This document shows, one piece after another, positions 8,100-21,511 of a stretch of 25,270 nt of DNA (positions are counted from its first letter, which is position 1; each line of letters starts with the position of its first letter). This DNA is from a virus. Its lineage: Duplodnaviria > Heunggongvirae > Uroviricota > Caudoviricetes. The position numbers were made by a program, and so were the translations under genes. Below the pieces are notes generated by a model. It saw only the letters and a list, made by a program, of their open reading frames with translations. It did no database searches and was not told the DNA's origin. Where the stretch lies: positions 1-25,270 of IMG/VR virus record IMGVR_UViG_2713897042_000013. One strand, 5' to 3'.

Positions 8100-8723
8100 T
8101 TATGCGACCTCGGAAGGAAGTCCAATCATCTTATTCAAATCTTCTACCCGTAAAGCAGGAAGTGCTGTACTTGCTATATCTGCTTCTTTTGGTAGCAACT
8201 CTTTGCTTTCAGGCCAAACTTCAATAAGTCGCTTAACTGTTGTGACTGAGTTCAAAGCAGCCCATACATTTGATTCGATATCCTTTTTCTTGGCTTCAAG
8301 TTTTTGTTGCAATGCGCAGATTTCATCAAACCTTTTTGTTATTTCGTGTTCTGCGCTAAACATGCATTTATCTTTGGTCGGAGTAGGGAGCAATATATCT
8401 TCGCCGTTGCCGTCTTTCCCATATGAATACCAGCCAACCCTTCTGCCAGATACAGTCAGATAAATTGAAGTTGAACGGGCATCGCATGAGTAAAATGAAC
8501 ATCCCAGCTTTTCAAGTTCTTCGCTTATAGCCATTAACTTGGATGATAACTGATCCACTTCCTCAGTTTTCTTTTTACCGCCAAACGCAACAACTCTGGC
8601 GTCAAGTGCAAGCTGGTTCTTTAACTTTGTTACTTCTTCAAGCTCAGTGAAAACCCCAGATTTAATTAAAGCGTTACGAGCGATTTTCTCTTTCATTCTC
8701 GTAGTTAAGCGGATTGATGACAT
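8100..8723 (-). CDS. Hypothetical protein (207 aa) between N and cIII, where lambda has sieB/ral/ea10
   Basis: Start taken at ATG 8723 with GAGGAA upstream. Hydrophilic, no recognised motif. Confidence 0.75.
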   Translation of the reverse strand: MSSIRLTTRMKEKIARNALIKSGVFTELEEVTKLKNQLALDARVVAFGGKKKTEEVDQLSSKLMAISEELEKLGCSFYSCDARSTSIYLTVSGRRVGWYSYGKDGNGEDILLPTPTKDKCMFSAEHEITKRFDEICALQQKLEAKKKDIESNVWAALNSVTTVKRLIEVWPESKELLPKEADIASTALPALRVEDLNKMIGLPSEVA

Positions 8724-8784
8724 ATTAATTCCTCTCAAATAAGTGGTTTGCTGCCTAATTTCATTTTCTGGCGACCAACACAAG

Positions 8785-9057
8785 TCATCTTGCTGTCAGT
8801 TGTTTGGATTTCCGGTAGCCTGCCGCGTAAAGAGCTACATTTGGAAGACAAGTTGAGCCTTCATATTTTCTGGTCAACGTTGTCAGTGTTATTACTTCTG
8901 CTCTCATTGCTGGTTTGCGCTTGCATTGCAAGACCACTCGAGAGGGGGTTGGTCTGTGTAGCTTGTCGGAGCTAATCGCCTCCTGACTTTGCAGGTTTGC
9001 GCGACGAGCTCTACGACGAGAAGCTGAGGTGCCTTTAAATTCTGTTTTTCTGGACAT
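8785..9057 (-). CDS. N: N-like transcription antiterminator (90 aa)
   Basis: Start ATG 9057 with GGGAGGAA upstream. N-terminal arginine-rich motif GTSASRRRARRANLQSQE resembles the phage 21 and P22 N ARMs. Lies downstream of nutL and pL. Confidence 0.8.
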   Translation of the reverse strand: MSRKTEFKGTSASRRRARRANLQSQEAISSDKLHRPTPSRVVLQCKRKPAMRAEVITLTTLTRKYEGSTCLPNVALYAAGYRKSKQLTAR

Positions 9058-9154
9058 AGATTCCTCCCGAATAAACTTTGGTGATGCAATCTCGAAGCTC
9101 CTCCTGAGACGGTTGCTTCGGCATTGCATCCCACAGCTTATGTGGTTGGGTGAT

Positions 9155-9200: not shown

Positions 9201-9246
9201 CTGCCAGTCTGTTCCATTTAGCTTCCAGCGTCCTGCTGATGTGTTT

Positions 9247-9310
9247 AGTATCACCGCTGGAGGTATTTTCGTCAACACCGCTAGAGATAAAATATTACCG
9301 CAAATGGTTA
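9247..9310 (-). promoter_or_regulatory. pL promoter with oL1-oL3 operators
   Basis: Minus strand -35 TTGACG, 17-bp spacer, -10 GATACT. Operators TATCACCGCTGGAGGTA, CAACACCGCTAGAGATAA and ATTACCGCAAATGGTTA resemble lambda oL1-3. Confidence 0.8.
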
Positions 9311-9458
9311 TGTGCATGTTTTTACTATTGATTTATTTTTTAAAGTTTTGCAGAGCTAGTCTGGATGTGTAGGAGCTGAATTGCGCAATGTGATAAGTGT
9401 GATTTATATTTATTCAATAAATACAATTCGTTAGGTGTGTTTTTGACGGACTGATGGT

Positions 9459-9485
9459 AAAAGAAAACCCGGCGCGGAGGCCGGG
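9459..9485 (-). terminator. Intrinsic terminator downstream of the rex-locus module (tImm-like position)
   Basis: Minus strand: stem CCCGGC / GCCGGG with loop CTCCGC, followed by TTTTCTTTT. Confidence 0.7.
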
Positions 9486-9500
9486 CTGAAGGGGCTCATT

Positions 9501-10430
9501 CTAATCGATTGATTTAATATCCCATTGAGGTCGAGAAACCAGAGTGTATCTGGGCTTGCCCTTACCAACAGTTTTTTTCAGGAACGTGGCTGTTGCAACG
9601 CTTCCTAAGTGCTTGTTTATAATATCTGGGTCATCTACAGCTTTGTCAATGCTAGCGGTTCTGATATCAGTGTTACCTAAAACTATAAATTCACATTGGC
9701 GCTTGTTAGGAAGAGTTCCCAAAAATATAACGTTCTCAATAATTTTTTCCTGCTGAATGTTATCATTGCTGAGATGTTGATATACAGCTTCAAGCTGTTT
9801 TGGCTCTCTAAAAACGATGCTAAAACCTTGGCTTTTAAGTGTAAAAACTGTTTTATTTTCATGCAGATAATGAATGAATGCTCTGATTTTATCTAAGGCC
9901 CGAGAGTCTAAGTTTTCTATAGCATCAGACAATTCTTCATCATCATTATCCAAGCTTGCCTGAAATATTTTTCTGGCCTTATTAATAGCTTTTGCTACTG
10001 GGGTTTCTTCATCGAATTCAAGAGGAGCATCAGGTCTAAACTCTTCAAGTACGAATCCGAAAGAACCACGGGCTGACGCGGTAATCATGAGATGATTATT
10101 TTCTATGTTTGGTATCTTGCCTGATGCAGGAAGTGGGCCATTGAAAGAGGTTGCCAAGTAAGCTATTGCATCATTAAAACAAGATATAGCTTTTGTTCCA
10201 AATACTGCTGAAATGCCATGCGTGCCAACTACTGTTGGGCCTCTAAAAGTTAACACAGCATGCGTAGGTTCATGTTCTCGAACGTCAGCTTGTGAAATTA
10301 ATCGCTCAACTTTCTCCAGACGGTCTTCTAAGCTTTTTCGGCTAATAGAATGACTTGTTGGCATATTTTTTAATAGATTACTTATTTGCTCGCGCTCACT
10401 GAGAGCGAAAACATAATCATTACGATTCAT
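9501..10430 (-). CDS. Uncharacterized protein (309 aa), distal gene of the two-gene rex-locus module
   Basis: ORF from the track. Its ATG overlaps the stop of the upstream ORF (ATGA). No recognised catalytic motif. Confidence 0.85.
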   Translation of the reverse strand: MNRNDYVFALSEREQISNLLKNMPTSHSISRKSLEDRLEKVERLISQADVREHEPTHAVLTFRGPTVVGTHGISAVFGTKAISCFNDAIAYLATSFNGPLPASGKIPNIENNHLMITASARGSFGFVLEEFRPDAPLEFDEETPVAKAINKARKIFQASLDNDDEELSDAIENLDSRALDKIRAFIHYLHENKTVFTLKSQGFSIVFREPKQLEAVYQHLSNDNIQQEKIIENVIFLGTLPNKRQCEFIVLGNTDIRTASIDKAVDDPDIINKHLGSVATATFLKKTVGKGKPRYTLVSRPQWDIKSID

Positions 10431-11005
10431 TGTTTGACCCCCTCAGTAGTAGCCGAATTAAGTATAGTCATTGCCACAACATCAAGTTGTGGGTTTAACG
10501 GGATTTGGATAAATCCCTTCCACGACAGATCGCGTCTATGTGCCCACATACTGTACCAATATACAGTCATTTCAACAAGCTCATGACTTGGTAGATTAAG
10601 TTCTTGGAAGTAGGAATCTACGAAAAACTCCTTCTTAACAAAATCATGATCAAATAGCTCTGGCTTTCTACCGATTACGATTGCATCATTATCGCCATTA
10701 CTGAATTGAAAAAAGGTCACAACATCGACATCATTCGGTGGCCTTTTTTCAATAAGTTCAATATGTTCTGTGAAGCTTCCATCTACCCACTGAAAACCTT
10801 CAACTAGCCCTGCTTGAGTGAGTGAAACACGAAAGTTAAGAAAACCCTTAAGGATTTTAATCCTTGCAGGGCTAAGCGAAAAAGTACTAACAAAGCGTAC
10901 TATATCCATTTTGTATGGGGAACGAGTATGGCTTGTAGGATCAGCCTCGTCTATTGGGGGGATTAACCCCATCTCATTCCATAGAGAGACAGTTGGTATA
11001 CTCAA
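10427..11005 (-). CDS. Uncharacterized protein (192 aa from TTG at 11005, or 181 aa from ATG at 10972), proximal gene of the rex-locus module
   Basis: ORF from the track, immediately downstream of cI on the same strand. Contains GSF-x12-PNDVDVV, weakly resembling a nucleotidyltransferase GS…DxD motif. Confidence 0.8.
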   Translation of the reverse strand: MSIPTVSLWNEMGLIPPIDEADPTSHTRSPYKMDIVRFVSTFSLSPARIKILKGFLNFRVSLTQAGLVEGFQWVDGSFTEHIELIEKRPPNDVDVVTFFQFSNGDNDAIVIGRKPELFDHDFVKKEFFVDSYFQELNLPSHELVEMTVYWYSMWAHRRDLSWKGFIQIPLNPQLDVVAMTILNSATTEGVKQ

Positions 11006-11091
11006 TGCTTAACCTTTATAACGAACTGAATATTCGGCAAAATATTGTTTTTAGGTATTGGCTGCTGTGCTTGTCGGACGTTTATTTCGTG

Positions 11092-11808
<717 letters not shown>

Positions 11809-11815
11809 TTAAATC

Positions 11816-11880
11816 TATCACCGCAGGGGATAAATATCTAACACCGCAGATGTTGACTATTTTACCTCTGGCGGTGATAA
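11816..11880. promoter_or_regulatory. oR3-oR2-oR1 operators with divergent pRM and pR promoters
   Basis: TATCACCGCAGGGGATA, TAACACCGCAGATGTTG, TACCTCTGGCGGTGATA; pR -35 TTGACT and -10 GATAAT. oR2 differs from recalled lambda (TAACACCGTGCGTGTTG). Confidence 0.9.
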
Positions 11881-11896
11881 TGACTGTATGTACTAA

Positions 11897-12106
<210 letters not shown>

Positions 12107-12113
12107 GTAACCC

Positions 12114-12159
12114 CGCTCTTTGTAACAACGGACATTCGTCCTACGTCGCTGAAAAGCGA
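12114..12159 (+). promoter_or_regulatory. nutR: boxA-like CGCTCTTTGTAACAA and boxB-like hairpin TCGCT-GAAA-AGCGA
   Basis: Read directly downstream of cro. Same hairpin architecture as nutL (5-bp stem, GAAA loop). Confidence 0.6.
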
Positions 12160-12244: not shown

Positions 12245-12541
12245 ATGGAAAGAACAAGTTACAGCAAACTATCACAGCGCGACGTTGATCGCGCAGAAAC
12301 AGATTTACTCATCAACCTGTCAGCGATTACCCAGCGAGGTCTGGCAAAGATGATTGGCTGTCATGAATCGAAGATAAGCAGAACGGACTGGAGATTTATT
12401 GCTTCTGTCTTGTGTGCTTTCGGAATGGCATCAGACATCAGTCCGATTAGCAGGGCTTTTAAGTATGCGCTTGATGGAATCACAAAGAAAAAATCCCCGG
12501 TGGCCGCCGGGGACTCTAAGCAAATTGATATGCAATTCTGA
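12245..12541 (+). CDS. cII: CII-like transcriptional activator (98 aa), not lambda cII
   Basis: Position between cro and O. Helix-turn-helix-like LAKMIGCHESKISR and C-terminal …KKKSPVAAGDSKQIDMQF parallel lambda CII (…KKRPAATERSEQIQMEF) with divergent sequence. Confidence 0.8.
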   Translation: MERTSYSKLSQRDVDRAETDLLINLSAITQRGLAKMIGCHESKISRTDWRFIASVLCAFGMASDISPISRAFKYALDGITKKKSPVAAGDSKQIDMQF

Positions 12542-12573: not shown

Positions 12574-13473
12574 ATGACAAATACAGCAAAAATACTCAAC
12601 TTCGGCAGAGGTAACTTTGCCAGACAGGAGCGTAATGTGGCAGATCTCGATGATGGTTACGCCAGACTATCAAATATGCTGCTTGAGGCTTATTCAGGCG
12701 CAGATCTGACCAAGCGACAGTTTAAAGTGCTGCTTGCCATTCTGCGTAAAACCTATGGGTGGAATAAACCAATGGACAGAATCACCGATTCTCAACTTAG
12801 CGAGATTACAAAGTTACCTGTCAAACGGTGCAATGAAGCCAAGTTAGAACTCGTCAGAATGAATATTATCAAGCAGCAAGGCGGCATGTTTGGACCAAAT
12901 AAAAACATCTCAGAATGGTGTATCCCTCAAAACGAGGGAAAATCCCCTAAAACGAGGGATAAAACATCCCTCAAATTGGGGGATTGCTATCCCTCAAAAC
13001 AGGGGGACACAAAAGACACTATTACAAAAGAAAAAAGAAAAGATTATTCGTCCGAGAATTCTGGCAAATCCTCTGACCAGCCAGAAAACGATCTTTCTGT
13101 GGTTAAACCGGATGCTGCAATTCAGAGCGGCAGCAAGTGGGGAACAGCAGAAGACCTGACCGCCGCAGAGTGGATGTTTGACATGGTGAAGACCATCGCG
13201 CCATCAGCCAGAAAACCGAATTTTGCTGGGTGGGCTAACGATATCCGCCTGATGCGTGAACGTGACGGACGTAACCACCGCGATATGTGTGTGCTTTTCC
13301 GCTGGGCCTGCCAGGACAACTTCTGGTCCGGTAACGTGCTGAGCCCGGCCAAACTCCGCGATAAGTGGACCCAACTCGAAATCAACCGTAACAAGCAACA
13401 AGCAGTCGTGACAGCCAGCAAACCAAAACTCGACCTGACAAACACAGACTGGATTTACGGGGTGGATCTATGA
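12574..13473 (+). CDS. O: Replication initiator O (lambda O, 299 aa)
   Basis: Translation matches recalled lambda O; contains the ori iterons. Confidence 0.97.
   Translation: MTNTAKILNFGRGNFARQERNVADLDDGYARLSNMLLEAYSGADLTKRQFKVLLAILRKTYGWNKPMDRITDSQLSEITKLPVKRCNEAKLELVRMNIIKQQGGMFGPNKNISEWCIPQNEGKSPKTRDKTSLKLGDCYPSKQGDTKDTITKEKRKDYSSENSGKSSDQPENDLSVVKPDAAIQSGSKWGTAEDLTAAEWMFDMVKTIAPSARKPNFAGWANDIRLMRERDGRNHRDMCVLFRWACQDNFWSGNVLSPAKLRDKWTQLEINRNKQQAVVTASKPKLDLTNTDWIYGVDL
12923..13050 (+). repeat. ori-lambda: four iterons (TCCCTCAAAACGAGGGA-like) followed by an AT-rich tract
   Basis: Direct repeats tccctcaaaacgaggga / tcccctaaaacgaggga / tccctcaaattggggga / tccctcaaaacaggggga read directly, then aaaagacactattacaaaagaaaaaagaaaag. 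Confidence 0.9.
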
Positions 13474-14171
13474 AAAACATCGCCGCACAGATGGTTAACT
13501 TTGACCGTGAGCAGATGCGTCGGATCGCCAACAACATGCCGGAACAGTACGACGAAAAGCCGCAGGTACAGCAGGTAGCGCAGATCATCAACGGTGTGTT
13601 CAGCCAGTTACTGGCAACTTTCCCGGCGAGCCTGGCTAACCGTGACCAGAACGAACTGAACGAAATCCGCCGCCAGTGGGTTCTGGCTTTCCGGGAAAAC
13701 GGGATCACCACGATGGAACAGGTTAACGCAGGAATGCGCGTAGCCCGTCGGCAGAATCGACCGTTCCTGCCATCTCCCGGGCAGTTTGTTGCCTGGTGCC
13801 GGGAAGAAGCATCCGTCATCGCCGGACTGCCAAACGTCAGCGAGCTGGTTGATATGGTTTACGAGTATTGCCGGAAGCGAGGCCTGTATCCGGATGCGGA
13901 GTCTTATCCGTGGAAATCAAACGCGCACTACTGGCTGGTTACCAACCTGTATCAGAACATGCGGGCCAATGCGTTGACTGACTCGGAATTACGGCGCAAG
14001 GCTGCCGATGAATTGTCCTGTATGACCGCACGAATTAACCGTGGTGAGGCTATACCTGAACCAGTAAAACAACTTCCTGTCATGGGCGGTAGACCTCTAA
14101 ATCGTGCACAGACTCTGGCGAAGATCGCAGAAATCAAAGCTAAGTTTGGGCTGAAAGGAGCAAGGGTATGA
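13470..14171 (+). CDS. P: Replication protein P (DnaB helicase loader, lambda P)
   Basis: 233-aa ORF matching recalled lambda P; start overlaps the O stop. Confidence 0.97.
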   Translation: MKNIAAQMVNFDREQMRRIANNMPEQYDEKPQVQQVAQIINGVFSQLLATFPASLANRDQNELNEIRRQWVLAFRENGITTMEQVNAGMRVARRQNRPFLPSPGQFVAWCREEASVIAGLPNVSELVDMVYEYCRKRGLYPDAESYPWKSNAHYWLVTNLYQNMRANALTDSELRRKAADELSCMTARINRGEAIPEPVKQLPVMGGRPLNRAQTLAKIAEIKAKFGLKGARV

Positions 14172-14531: not shown

Positions 14532-14972
14532 ATGAAAAAACTAACCTTTGAAATTCGATCTCCAGCACATCAGCAAAACGCTATTCACGCAGTACAGCAA
14601 ATTCTTCCAGACCCAACCAAACCAATCGTAGTAACCATTCAGGAACGCAACCGCAGCTTAGACCAAAACCGAAAGCTTTGGGCTTGCCTTGGTGACGTCT
14701 CTCGTCAGGTTGAATGGCATGGTCGCTGGCTGGATGCAGAAAGCTGGAAGTGTGTGTTTACCGCAGCATTAAAGCAGCAGGACGTTGTTCCTAACCTTGC
14801 CGGGAATGGCTTTGTGGTAATAGGCCAGTCAACCAGCAGGATGCGTGTAAGCGAATTTGCGGAGCTATTAGAGCTTATACAGGCATTCGGTACAGAGCGT
14901 GGCGTTAAGTGGTCAGACGAAGCGCGACTGGCTCTGGAGTGGAAAGCGAGATGGGGAGACAGGGCTGCATGA
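14532..14972 (+). CDS. ninB: NinB (Orf family recombination mediator)
   Basis: MKKLTFEIRSPAHQQNAIHAVQQ… matches lambda NinB. Start placed at the ATG (the track's longer version uses an upstream alternative start). Confidence 0.9.
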   Translation: MKKLTFEIRSPAHQQNAIHAVQQILPDPTKPIVVTIQERNRSLDQNRKLWACLGDVSRQVEWHGRWLDAESWKCVFTAALKQQDVVPNLAGNGFVVIGQSTSRMRVSEFAELLELIQAFGTERGVKWSDEARLALEWKARWGDRAA

Positions 14973-15841
14973 TAAATGTCGTTAGTTTCTCCGGTGGCAG
15001 GACGTCAGCATATTTGCTCTGGCTAATGGAGCAAAAGCGACGGGCAGGTAAATACGTGCATTACGTTTTCATGGATACAGGTTGTGAACATCCAATGACA
15101 TATCGGTTTGTCAGGGAAGTTGTGAAGTTCTGGGATATACCGCTCACCGTATTGCAGGTTGATATCAACCCGGAGCTTGGACAGCCAAATGGTTATACGG
15201 TATGGGAACCAAAGGATATTCAGACGCGAATGCCTGTTCTGAAGCCATTTATCGATATGGTAAAGAAATATGGCACTCCATACGTCGGCGGCGCGTTCTG
15301 CACTGACAGATTAAAACTCGTTCCCTTCACCAAATACTGTGATGACCATTTCGGGCGAGGGAATTACACCACGTGGATTGGCATCAGAGCTGATGAACCG
15401 AAGCGGCTAAAGCCAAAGTCTGGAATCAGATATCTTGCTGAACTGTCAGACTTTGAGAAGGAAGATATCCTCGCATGGTGGAAGCAACAACCATTCGATT
15501 TGCAAATACCGGAACATCTCGGTAACTGCATATTCTGCATTAAAAAATCAACGCAAAAAATCGGACTTGCCTGCAAAGATGAGGAGGGATTGCAGCGTGT
15601 TTTTAATGAGGTCATCACGGGATCCCATGTGCGTGACGGACATCGGGAAACGCCAAAGGAGATTATGTACCGAGGAAGAATGTCGCTGGACGGTATCGCG
15701 AAAATGTATTCAGAAAATGATTATCAAGCCCTGTATCAGGACATGGTACGAGCTAAAAGATTCGATACCGGCTCTTGTTCTGAGTCATGCGAAATATTTG
15801 GAGGGCAGCTTGATTTCGACTTCGGGAGGGAAGCTGCATGA
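14969..15841 (+). CDS. ninC: NinC (PAPS-reductase-like family), 290 aa
   Basis: ATG at 14969 overlaps the ninB stop (ATGA). Sequence matches recalled lambda NinC. Confidence 0.9.
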
Positions 15842-20323: not shown

Positions 20324-20884
20324 TTAAAGTACCCACCAGCGGATCGATTCCGTGGGTATGGTTGCAGCCTCGACTTGATGAACAATTCCCAACTCGGAGG
20401 CCCTTCCGGGATGAAGGATGGTTGCCGAAGTGATCAAATCCTTCCAATCAGCAATCTCACTTGGATTTTTCTTTTTTGTTTCAATATCCATGATTTGAAT
20501 AAATCGATTTAGATCGTCATCGAGGCATGAAGCCCATTCTCTCAATCGTAGGTGATCTGCGCTGGGTGCGGCGAACCCCCAATGCAGTGGGTGAAGAAGG
20601 AAGCGAGAAAGTGGGTTGGCAGTTCGCACTTCTCCAGCCATATAGATCACGTTTGCGATTGATTCAACATTACTGAGGTTATGCGTAGTAACCTTTACAC
20701 CAAGTGACTTTAAAAAATTGTAAGCAGTAAAGCCTGAAACTGTATCTCCACCTTTGCTGGAAATATAGAGCTTAATTTCTGTTGCTGGTTGATTAGTATT
20801 TGAAACTGCTTTTAAGCAGACATCCATCAGATTAGTTACAGAGGCAACTGTAACATCTGTCAAAAAATGTACCGTATGGATCAT
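20324..20884 (-). CDS. ClpP-fold serine peptidase-like protein (186 aa)
   Basis: GAGGAG ribosome-binding site. LYISSKGGDTVSGFTAYNFL…SNVESIANV…SRFLLHPLHWG aligns by eye with ClpP (YINSPGG…GQAASMGA…SRVMIHQPLGG), with the catalytic Ser and His positions conserved. Confidence 0.85.
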   Translation of the reverse strand: MIHTVHFLTDVTVASVTNLMDVCLKAVSNTNQPATEIKLYISSKGGDTVSGFTAYNFLKSLGVKVTTHNLSNVESIANVIYMAGEVRTANPLSRFLLHPLHWGFAAPSADHLRLREWASCLDDDLNRFIQIMDIETKKKNPSEIADWKDLITSATILHPGRASELGIVHQVEAATIPTESIRWWVL

Positions 20885-20962: not shown

Positions 20963-21511
20963 CTAGCTCTGTGGCGTGCTTAAGCATTTTGCTTCGTAAT
21001 GTACCCTCATGGAAAACATAGCGAATAACATAATGAGCTTATCGCGTAAGCTTGTAGAGGATCCCGTGAAACTTACAACCCTAGTTTCTGCTCCGTAAAC
21101 CCCAAGCTTAAAATCTCTAATGGGGGTCAAGCTATCAGGGTAACCGTGCTCCATTAGACTTGTTAAGGAGTCAATCTCACTGTTAGTGATGTCAGAGTTG
21201 TTAATTTGATGTGAGCGTTTGTTTCTGAAGTTGTTGAACCTTCGAATAAATTTGTTTAGCTCTGAGCTCATCCCATAGTTCATCGCAAGCTGAGCTTTAA
21301 TGGCAAAATCCATGTTGATATTTTCGCCAAAACCGCTGAAGAAATCCCTGTTACCAGAGGCACAGATAATCCAAGCTTCCAAGATTTGTTCAATCAAAAG
21401 GTGAGTGCGGAGATAGATACCAATGTCATCTTGGGACCGAACTATAGTCATTATTCTATCGGGTTGATGGGATGCTAAAGTCAACTCTTCAAAATGAGTA
21501 AAATCAAACAT
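20963..21511 (-). CDS. Hypothetical protein (182 aa) with a HEPN-like RNxxxH motif
   Basis: AAGGA ribosome-binding site. Motif FRNKRSHQ (R-N-x3-H). Lies upstream of the ClpP-like gene on the same strand. Confidence 0.8.
   Translation of the reverse strand: MFDFTHFEELTLASHQPDRIMTIVRSQDDIGIYLRTHLLIEQILEAWIICASGNRDFFSGFGENINMDFAIKAQLAMNYGMSSELNKFIRRFNNFRNKRSHQINNSDITNSEIDSLTSLMEHGYPDSLTPIRDFKLGVYGAETRVVSFTGSSTSLRDKLIMLFAMFSMRVHYEAKCLSTPQS

Follow-up and report, generated by a model that had tools for sequence, protein, structure and literature searches.

A mobile two-gene cassette with a predicted nucleotidyltransferase in the rexAB slot of a lambda-immunity prophage: a candidate anti-phage defense module

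Sequence comparison identifies positions 9486 to 11091 of a 25,270-nucleotide stretch of viral DNA (Caudoviricetes; IMG/VR record IMGVR_UViG_2713897042_000013, positions 1 to 25,270; referred to in its full length as the window) as a two-gene cassette that moves horizontally and here, in a lambda-immunity prophage, occupies the slot of rexAB. The textbook location for exclusion genes carried by prophages is the slot 3' of cI, exemplified by RexAB. The two genes, ORF-A and ORF-B (A and B below), encode a predicted nucleotidyltransferase and a partner protein predicted to be soluble. Our favored reading, to which we assign a probability only a little above one-half (about 0.55), is that they form a lysogen-expressed anti-phage defense module of the abortive-infection or toxin-antitoxin type, with B as the sensor or regulator and A as the effector. 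The cI transcript, initiated at pRM or pRE, would read through A and B and end at a conserved terminator; B would restrain A as long as no superinfecting phage is detected, and upon detection A would transfer nucleotides onto a cellular or phage target (RNA, tRNA, or protein), so that phage production stops. We infer the anti-phage role and the assignment of sensor and effector from the precise replacement of rexAB, the repressor-associated contexts of related pairs, the obligate coupling of the two genes, their embedding in type I restriction-modification (R-M) operons, and the match of ORF-A to PDC-M63A, a component of a candidate defense system in the PADLOC catalogue.

The replacement of rexAB is delimited by two sharp breakpoints. 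On one side, window positions 11092-12120 align to lambda 37227-38255 with 91.6% identity, and homology begins exactly at the cI stop; on the other, positions 9228-9485 align to lambda 35570-35824 with 77% identity, the alignment ending 1 base before the rexB stop (35825). The breakpoints therefore indicate that lambda 35825-37226, comprising rexB, rexA, and the spacer, has been replaced by window 9486-11091. An earlier interpretation made without database searches (the sequence-only reading) had described the surrounding cI, operators, and cro as almost pure lambda, and this description was accurate: cI (11092-11805, minus strand; 237 residues, lambda immunity; annotated as a LexA family protein in Escherichia coli CE10) shares 94.5% protein identity with lambda cI, and Cro shares 100%. 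The OL3-OL2-OL1 and pL region (9228-9456, minus strand), which belongs to the flanking backbone outside the cassette and falls within the segment aligned at 77% nucleotide identity to lambda 35570-35824, is recognizably of the lambda type, with conserved operators and with pL hexamers TTGACG/GATACT at 9275-9247, where a promoter-like site was found. The same reading had held that neither protein resembles RexA or RexB, in agreement with blastp comparisons that gave only E values above 2. The terminator hairpin after B is conserved with the lambda terminator after rexB, and alignment to lambda revealed no homology between the cI-to-A spacer and the lambda cI-rexA spacer.

That the module was swapped in as a unit, as the sequence-only reading had proposed, is further supported by its recurrence beside different repressors. 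A block of ~1.64 kb (~9456-11097) is found at 78-98% identity in other prophages, and in three IMG/VR contigs little more than the cassette itself remains homologous to the window (L018, 9372-11118 at 98%; L020, 9456-11097 at 92%; L022, 9456-11025 at 78.5%), with differing repressors in the flanks. The left ends of the blocks shared with other prophages fall at 9372-9456, and the terminator hairpin lies inside the block that moves with the cassette. Going by these block ends, the conserved terminator thus behaves as the left joint for recombination, with the end of the repressor gene in the same role on the right. Among 5426 complete E. coli genomes, 8 contain the identical cassette DNA, in each case immediately behind a gene for a LexA-family repressor, and the CE10 copy is located in a prophage; a variant at 67% nucleotide identity occurs in 26 further E. 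coli genomes and, in strain ST540, directly follows the cI of a different immunity type. The module is also richer in AT than its neighbors, an impression first gained by eye, with a GC content of 39.3%, compared with 44.1% in cI and 46.9% over the entire window, and a GC content at third codon positions of 0.29-0.34 against 0.39 for cI.

The pair is widely distributed. A pattern-limited scan of 100,044 species genomes, made with the ORF-A alignment, retrieved A relatives in at least 389 species; the best 80 of these 389 relatives supply the genomic-locus counts given below, and 74 IMG/VR loci supply the viral-locus counts. The best 80 come from all proteobacterial classes, Planctomycetota, Chlorobi, Bacteroidales, Clostridiales, and Synergistota, as well as from Verrucomicrobia, Nitrospirae, Chloroflexi, and methanogenic or methanotrophic archaea, and such breadth at 40-50% identity indicates horizontal spread. 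B is also present on five plasmids.

Within the cassette, ORF-A (10427-11005, minus strand) encodes 192 residues from a TTG start and ORF-B (9501-10430, minus strand) 309 residues from an ATG start. The stop of A and the start of B share an ATGA at 10427-10430 (minus strand), exactly as first noted, and this overlap is predicted to couple the translation of the two genes. We retained the TTG start because an AAAGG sits 7-11 nucleotides 5' of it, because homologs keep the N-terminal IPxWNxxGxxPP that follows from it, and because it matches the RefSeq annotation of the identical gene of E. coli CE10. The 86-nucleotide cI-to-A spacer (11006-11091, minus strand) forms the right edge of the cassette and holds this AAAGG as the ribosome-binding site of A; a site scan found no terminator-like site in it, and it folds less stably than shuffled sequences (z = +1.7). 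At the opposite end, a predicted intrinsic terminator (9457-9487, minus strand) closes the cI-A-B unit and coincides with the left joint of the cassette. It consists of an 8-bp GC-rich stem at 9466-9487 followed by UUUUCUUUU as the U-tract, 13 nucleotides past the B stop, and its folding energy of -14.6 kcal/mol (z = -2.1 against shuffles) bears out the strong terminator that had been called there, the hairpin being the conserved one of the lambda type. Since A and B lie on the cI strand, behind an unstructured and terminator-free spacer and ahead of a shared terminator, the layout is consistent with cotranscription with cI, the first gene of the presumed cI-A-B transcript, and with expression in the lysogen. 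Scans of the window for Rfam families and tRNAs gave no match.

ORF-A belongs to the Pfam family DUF6932 (PF22014), scoring 93.6 bits where the cut-off is 27 (E = 2e-26); the alignment takes in residues 9-168 and nearly the whole profile (positions 3-141 of 142). This is its sole Pfam match at E values up to 1, and RefSeq names the identical protein "DUF6932 family protein". ORF-A also matches phrog_9194 and two PADLOC models of PDC-M63A, PDLC04744 (E = 2.2e-10, 38.7 bits, model positions 26-150 of 152) and PDLC04745 (E = 1.5e-4). The sequence-only reading had pointed to a segment GSF-x12-PNDVDVV as weakly resembling a nucleotidyltransferase motif, and conservation strengthens this assignment: G76, S77, D92, D94, and D130 are invariant among 39 homologs at 36-85% identity, as are R59, Q72, W73, E83, Y149, W150, H156, W162, K163, and G164. 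The predicted catalytic signature spans 10616-10780 (minus strand), with G76-S77 at 10775-10780, D92-x-D94 at 10724-10732, and D130 at 10616-10618. In the confident structure model, the signature residues lie at the end of β1 (69-75), at the start of β2 (93-100), and in β3 (129-135), which reproduces the pol-beta pattern of hG[GS] after β1, [DE]x[DE] on β2, and a third carboxylate on β3. The best matches of the model in the Protein Data Bank (PDB) are pol-beta-type nucleotidyltransferases, with low scores; apart from the nucleotidyltransferase core and a few C-terminal helices, the model contains no other large domain, and the protein of ~190 residues carries conserved N- and C-terminal extensions. 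Sequence-profile searches of solved structures with A and B returned only pentatricopeptide repeat proteins, uL23, and BAG proteins, which we rejected as spurious. Because the GS...DxD...D signature is invariant, and on the strength of the sequence and the model, we treat A as a putative divergent, catalytically intact pol-beta-type nucleotidyltransferase.

ORF-B is far less easily placed. It has no match in Pfam, NCBIfam, or PADLOC (the latter at E values up to 1), its only family match is phrog_18731, of unknown function, and structure searches gave neither a full-length fold match in the PDB nor a match to known toxins. Hydropathy predicts a soluble protein with no transmembrane segment; indeed, the maximal 19-residue Kyte-Doolittle hydropathy of ~1.15 for A and B rules out a membrane-spanning component of the RexB type or a membrane effector. 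From N- to C-terminus, the model of B shows a helical hairpin, a central domain, and an OB-like β-barrel, with the motif GSFGF (residues 122-126; 10053-10067, minus strand) at the turn of a β-hairpin in the central domain. A profile search of 1.84 billion representative proteins yielded 1469 clusters at E <= 0.001, and the best 150 of them are mostly 295-325 residues long, the majority matching end to end. Sixty diverse members all share G64, F77, G122-S123-F124-G125-F126, and R177 as invariant positions, and no catalytic, nuclease, or toxin motif could be recognized among the positions conserved in these 60 relatives.

Several leads for B were followed and set aside. A HEPN reading was suggested by R183-x6-H190 in this sequence and fails on the histidine, which is not conserved in the family. 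The top match of B in BFVD carries a DUF6575 annotation, and Vassallo 2022 names this domain among validated PD systems. Among the matches reported, neither Pfam DUF6575 nor the PADLOC models of the PD-T4, PD-T7, and PD-lambda systems matched B or its 60 relatives, and DUF6575 remains an unproven lead. In a Paracoccaceae metagenome-assembled genome (L159, 8567-9469), two hydrophobic helices stand in for the barrel of a B relative after profile position 229; only one such case was seen, and it could be an assembly or frameshift artifact. C-terminal domain swapping in B was not retained, the other partial matches (P0198, P0220, and P0227, among others) looking frameshifted or chimeric.

A nucleotidyltransferase next to a protein with an OB-like barrel could also be read as a signaling pair in the manner of CBASS or Hailong, in which A would make a nucleotide or short oligonucleotide that the barrel of B binds, thereby turning an effector activity on or off. 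The match scores on the side of this reading are all low, however; the 192-residue model of A has no large domain beyond the core and C-terminal helices, none of the known effector domains (transmembrane, nuclease, TIR, and SIR2 among them) is present in B, and no third gene accompanies the pair consistently. We regard nucleotide signaling as the most improbable of the alternatives, and less likely than the defense reading with B as regulator and A as effector.

A lies directly 5' of B in all 154 related loci (74/74 viral and 80/80 genomic), the downstream B being truncated in two of the 80 genomic loci, both from Cupriavidus species. The A stop overlaps the B start in 148 of the 154, by 4 nucleotides in 73, and A and B diverge together (r = 0.94), with A the more conserved in 95% of pairs (mean 47% versus 38% for B). 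The A-B pair is obligate. In about 53 of the 74 viral loci, a cI-like ORF lies upstream of the pair on the same strand within 1.4 kb, and this repressor-downstream position recurs in prophages of Proteus, Providencia, Aeromonas, and Moraxella. In Proteus mirabilis prophages (L005-L008, 4614-4949), a DUF3024 gene stands between cI and the DUF6932 gene, so the repressor-downstream slot can hold extra cargo.

The pair is also found in the company of established defense genes. In 19 of the 80 genomic loci, it lies within a type I R-M operon, with HsdR plus HsdM or HsdS on the same strand, the commonest order being hsdM-hsdS-A-B-hsdR; of the 43 loci whose flanks reach at least 5 kb on either side, 13 have an HsdR match, and Pfam and PADLOC confirmed the R-M assignments. 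Some of these operons also carry a SIR2 protein and a YhcG PD-(D/E)xK nuclease beside the pair; at L109 (4409-7893) and L124 (5682-6728), SIR2_2, an NTP_transf_2/Polbeta nucleotidyltransferase ORF, and a YhcG/DUF1016 nuclease are found inside the pair's R-M operons.

The closest catalogued relative of the cassette is PDC-M63, one of the PADLOC candidate systems, which were defined by their embedding in known defense systems and left untested by their authors (Payne et al., bioRxiv 10.1101/2024.01.29.577857). PDC-M63 shares with our locus the two-gene layout of A followed by B, a first protein that matches PDC-M63A, the embedding in type I R-M operons, and the occurrence in prophages. It differs in that ORF-B matches no PDC-M63B model at E values up to 1; four of these models were matched by one or two each of the 60 diverse B relatives, with E values of 2e-4 to 8e-3. 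Having no PDC-M63B match, the locus is a sister branch that has diverged from PDC-M63 and would probably escape any scan in which both PDC-M63 models must match. The system is therefore less novel than the word "undescribed", used in the sequence-only reading, would suggest: its function is uncharacterized, as claimed, but A is already catalogued as DUF6932 and phrog_9194, B as phrog_18731, and the pair is a distant, partly unrecognized relative of PDC-M63 and so is partly anticipated by the PADLOC candidate catalogue.

Structure comparison links B to a second candidate system. Among viral models, Foldseek gave three full-length matches to B with a probability of 1.0 and E values from 5e-11 to 1e-9. 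One of them (Q6NE06, E = 1e-9) is from Leptospira phage LE1 and, by its length, corresponds to LE1-0037, a protein that holds the GSFGF motif and matches PADLOC PDC-M02B with E = 1e-64. Directly upstream, after a 2-nucleotide gap, LE1-0038 encodes a DUF4365 protein that matches PDC-M02A. Alignment of the B family with relatives of LE1-0037 by hhalign gave a probability of 65% and E = 6e-5 over 169 columns that include GSFGF. With the LE1-0038/LE1-0037 genes (L170, 38735-40413, minus strand), PDC-M02 is thus represented in a temperate phage of known sequence. In its C-terminal part, LE1-0038 contains CYWYDI, a string that recalls the invariant YWYSMW of DUF6932, which could be chance or a shared partner-binding element. 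PDC-M02, composed of a DUF4365 protein and a partner of ~380 residues, resembles our cassette in that its second protein is a remote homolog of ORF-B with an identical GSFGF motif and in that a small first gene abuts the second; it differs in its first gene, which belongs to DUF4365 and is not a nucleotidyltransferase, and in the N-terminal region of the partner, and it is itself, like PDC-M63, only a candidate defense system. We found no mention of DUF6932 or PDC-M02 in the literature searched. DUF4365 is described as a nuclease domain of proteins associated with short prokaryotic Argonautes (PMC10810196).

Since a B-like protein occurs with DUF6932 in one case and with DUF4365 in the other, the B-type scaffold partners at least two unrelated small enzymes. 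We provisionally group ORF-B, PDC-M63B, and PDC-M02B in a B-like GSFGF superfamily, whose members have a GSFGF central domain and a β-rich C-terminus and are encoded after a small enzyme gene. The constancy of the B scaffold beside changing enzymes, the faster evolution of B, and its lack of a catalytic motif are the reasons why we favor B as the regulator and A as the effector. A wider proposal, which we advance tentatively and would not expect to hold in full, is that proteins with a GSFGF hairpin and an OB-like barrel constitute a new class of sensors or adaptors, present in bacteria and archaea alike and mounted on interchangeable small enzymes, with a DUF6932 nucleotidyltransferase in this cassette and in PDC-M63 and a DUF4365 nuclease in PDC-M02, the nucleotidyltransferase version being a new defense mechanism that here takes the place of RexAB. 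An infection signal sensed by B would then release a nucleotidyl transfer unlike those of CBASS, Hailong, MenT/AbiE, and MNT-HEPN.

Several observations weigh against a defense module with A as its effector. B has no recognizable sensor or effector domain, and the roles of the two proteins are for this reason assigned by analogy only. Moreover, two Cupriavidus species (L132 and L166, ~8000-8820) keep an intact A, with its catalytic residues retained, next to a B cut to ~55 residues, a truncation that appears inherited since both species have it. These loci argue that A is not lethal without full-length B, and they fit at least as well the opposite polarity, that is, a type VII-like toxin-antitoxin system akin to MntA-HepT. 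The toxic protein would then be B, neutralized by the upstream A through nucleotidylylation of a conserved hydroxyl, for which S123 or T117 in the GSFGF hairpin are candidates, and infection or loss of the prophage would release B. The gene order is also as expected for this scheme, which is the main rival to ours. Against it, B possesses neither a conserved Rx4-6H motif of HEPN proteins nor another nuclease or toxin motif, it lacks a transmembrane segment, its structure matches no known toxin, and the DUF4365 nuclease that partners B-like proteins cannot be a modifying antitoxin. Decayed loci with a frameshifted A and an intact B also exist and count against a toxic B; as decay runs both ways, we discarded decayed loci as a guide to the toxic partner. 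On balance, we consider a toxic B unlikely.

Two further observations that count against an anti-phage role bear on whether the cassette serves defense at all. Deletion of PDC-M63AB from a prophage of E. coli NILS69 produced no change against 10 virulent phages, and B is carried by none of the 50,697 deposited phage genome records. A selfish addiction module, or an accessory of lysogeny or host physiology that modulates induction or modifies a host molecule in a cargo-tolerant slot, would account for this sole experiment on a catalogued relative and for the lack of an isolated plaque-forming phage with the module among these records, and it would agree with the unrelated cargo that the same slot holds in other lambdoid phages, namely, a NYN-domain protein in 2B8 and a hypothetical protein in 2G7b. 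However, such readings leave unexplained the repeated same-strand insertion of the pair in type I R-M operons of unrelated bacteria, as well as the neighboring SIR2 and nuclease genes, and the negative deletion test covered only 10 virulent phages. We therefore hold a nondefense role to be quite improbable, and less likely than the lysogen-expressed defense module. The hypothesis of a candidate defense role, as already formulated in the sequence-only reading, receives strong contextual support from the repressor-linked viral loci (~53/74) and the R-M-embedded genomic loci (19/80), whereas the deletion of a PDC-M63 locus had no phenotype.

Other genes of the window place the cassette in a patchwork. 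N (8785-9129, minus strand; PF25694) and cII (12245-12541, plus strand) share only 34% and 32% protein identity with lambda and are not lambda-like, and O is 96% identical to lambda at the nucleotide level. The alternation of lambda-like cI, Cro, and O with non-lambda N and cII describes a backbone that is a fine-scale mosaic around the immunity region. Directly downstream of N, in the pL operon, a gene at 8100-8783 (minus strand) encodes a 227-residue Nmad5 protein ("nucleotide modification associated domain 5", PF18757, E = 3e-70), a second nucleotide-related accessory gene less than 1 kb from the module. A 310-residue protein with a PAPS-reductase domain (PF01507, E = 1.5e-8) is encoded at 14909-15841 (plus strand), somewhat 3' of ORFs of the size of lambda O and P (12574-14171). 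Finally, an antisense pair (20324-20884 and 20963-21511, both minus strand) lies among the plus-strand ORFs of the ~19.0- to 24.4-kb region; one member is a ClpP-like protease (PF00574, E = 2e-12), the other has 182 residues and no Pfam match, and the pair may be a second accessory cassette.

The module is no local oddity, as it is found in hundreds of bacterial and archaeal species and, in about one-quarter of the genomic loci examined, within type I R-M operons. So far, A and B are known only as catalogued families (DUF6932 and PHROGs). Demonstrating its role would attach a function to DUF6932 as well as to a family comprising ~1,500 sequence clusters, would put PDC-M63 and, through the shared partner fold, PDC-M02 to the test, and could reveal a new use of nucleotidyl transfer in immunity. 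An inactive module would also be informative, as it would calibrate predictions based on guilt by embedding and on hotspots. The location of the module in the RexAB slot of a lambda-immunity phage makes it unusually easy to test by standard lambda genetics in E. coli K-12.

Compared with the classical occupant of the slot, the cassette has the same strand and regulatory frame as RexA-RexB, in that it comes directly after cI and stops at the conserved terminator that also closes rexAB ahead of OL/pL; both are two-gene modules, and expression of A-B in the lysogen would follow the lambda precedent. The differences lie in the proteins, which share no sequence similarity with RexA or RexB (blastp E > 2). 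Lambda RexB is a polytopic membrane protein, whereas A and B are both predicted to be soluble, with no membrane protein in the module, and the enzymatic component of A-B is a predicted nucleotidyltransferase. With MNT-HEPN (MntA-HepT), the cassette has in common the gene order and the predicted fold class of A; it departs from that system in that A, with its ~190 residues and its conserved extensions at both termini, belongs to DUF6932 rather than to NTP_transf_2 or Polbeta, and B has neither a conserved Rx4-6H motif nor a HEPN fold match. Neither A nor B matches, in Pfam or PADLOC, AbiEii, MenT (DUF1814), the CD-NTase of CBASS, or HalB of Hailong, and B is unlike the partners of these enzymes, that is, AbiEi, MenA, the CBASS effectors, and the HalA membrane channel. 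As regards CBASS in particular, A is not in the CD-NTase family and B has no recognizable effector. Set against the characterized systems and given a partner with no known fold, the cassette counts as a variant of the nucleotidyltransferase-containing two-gene modules of defense and toxin-antitoxin systems.

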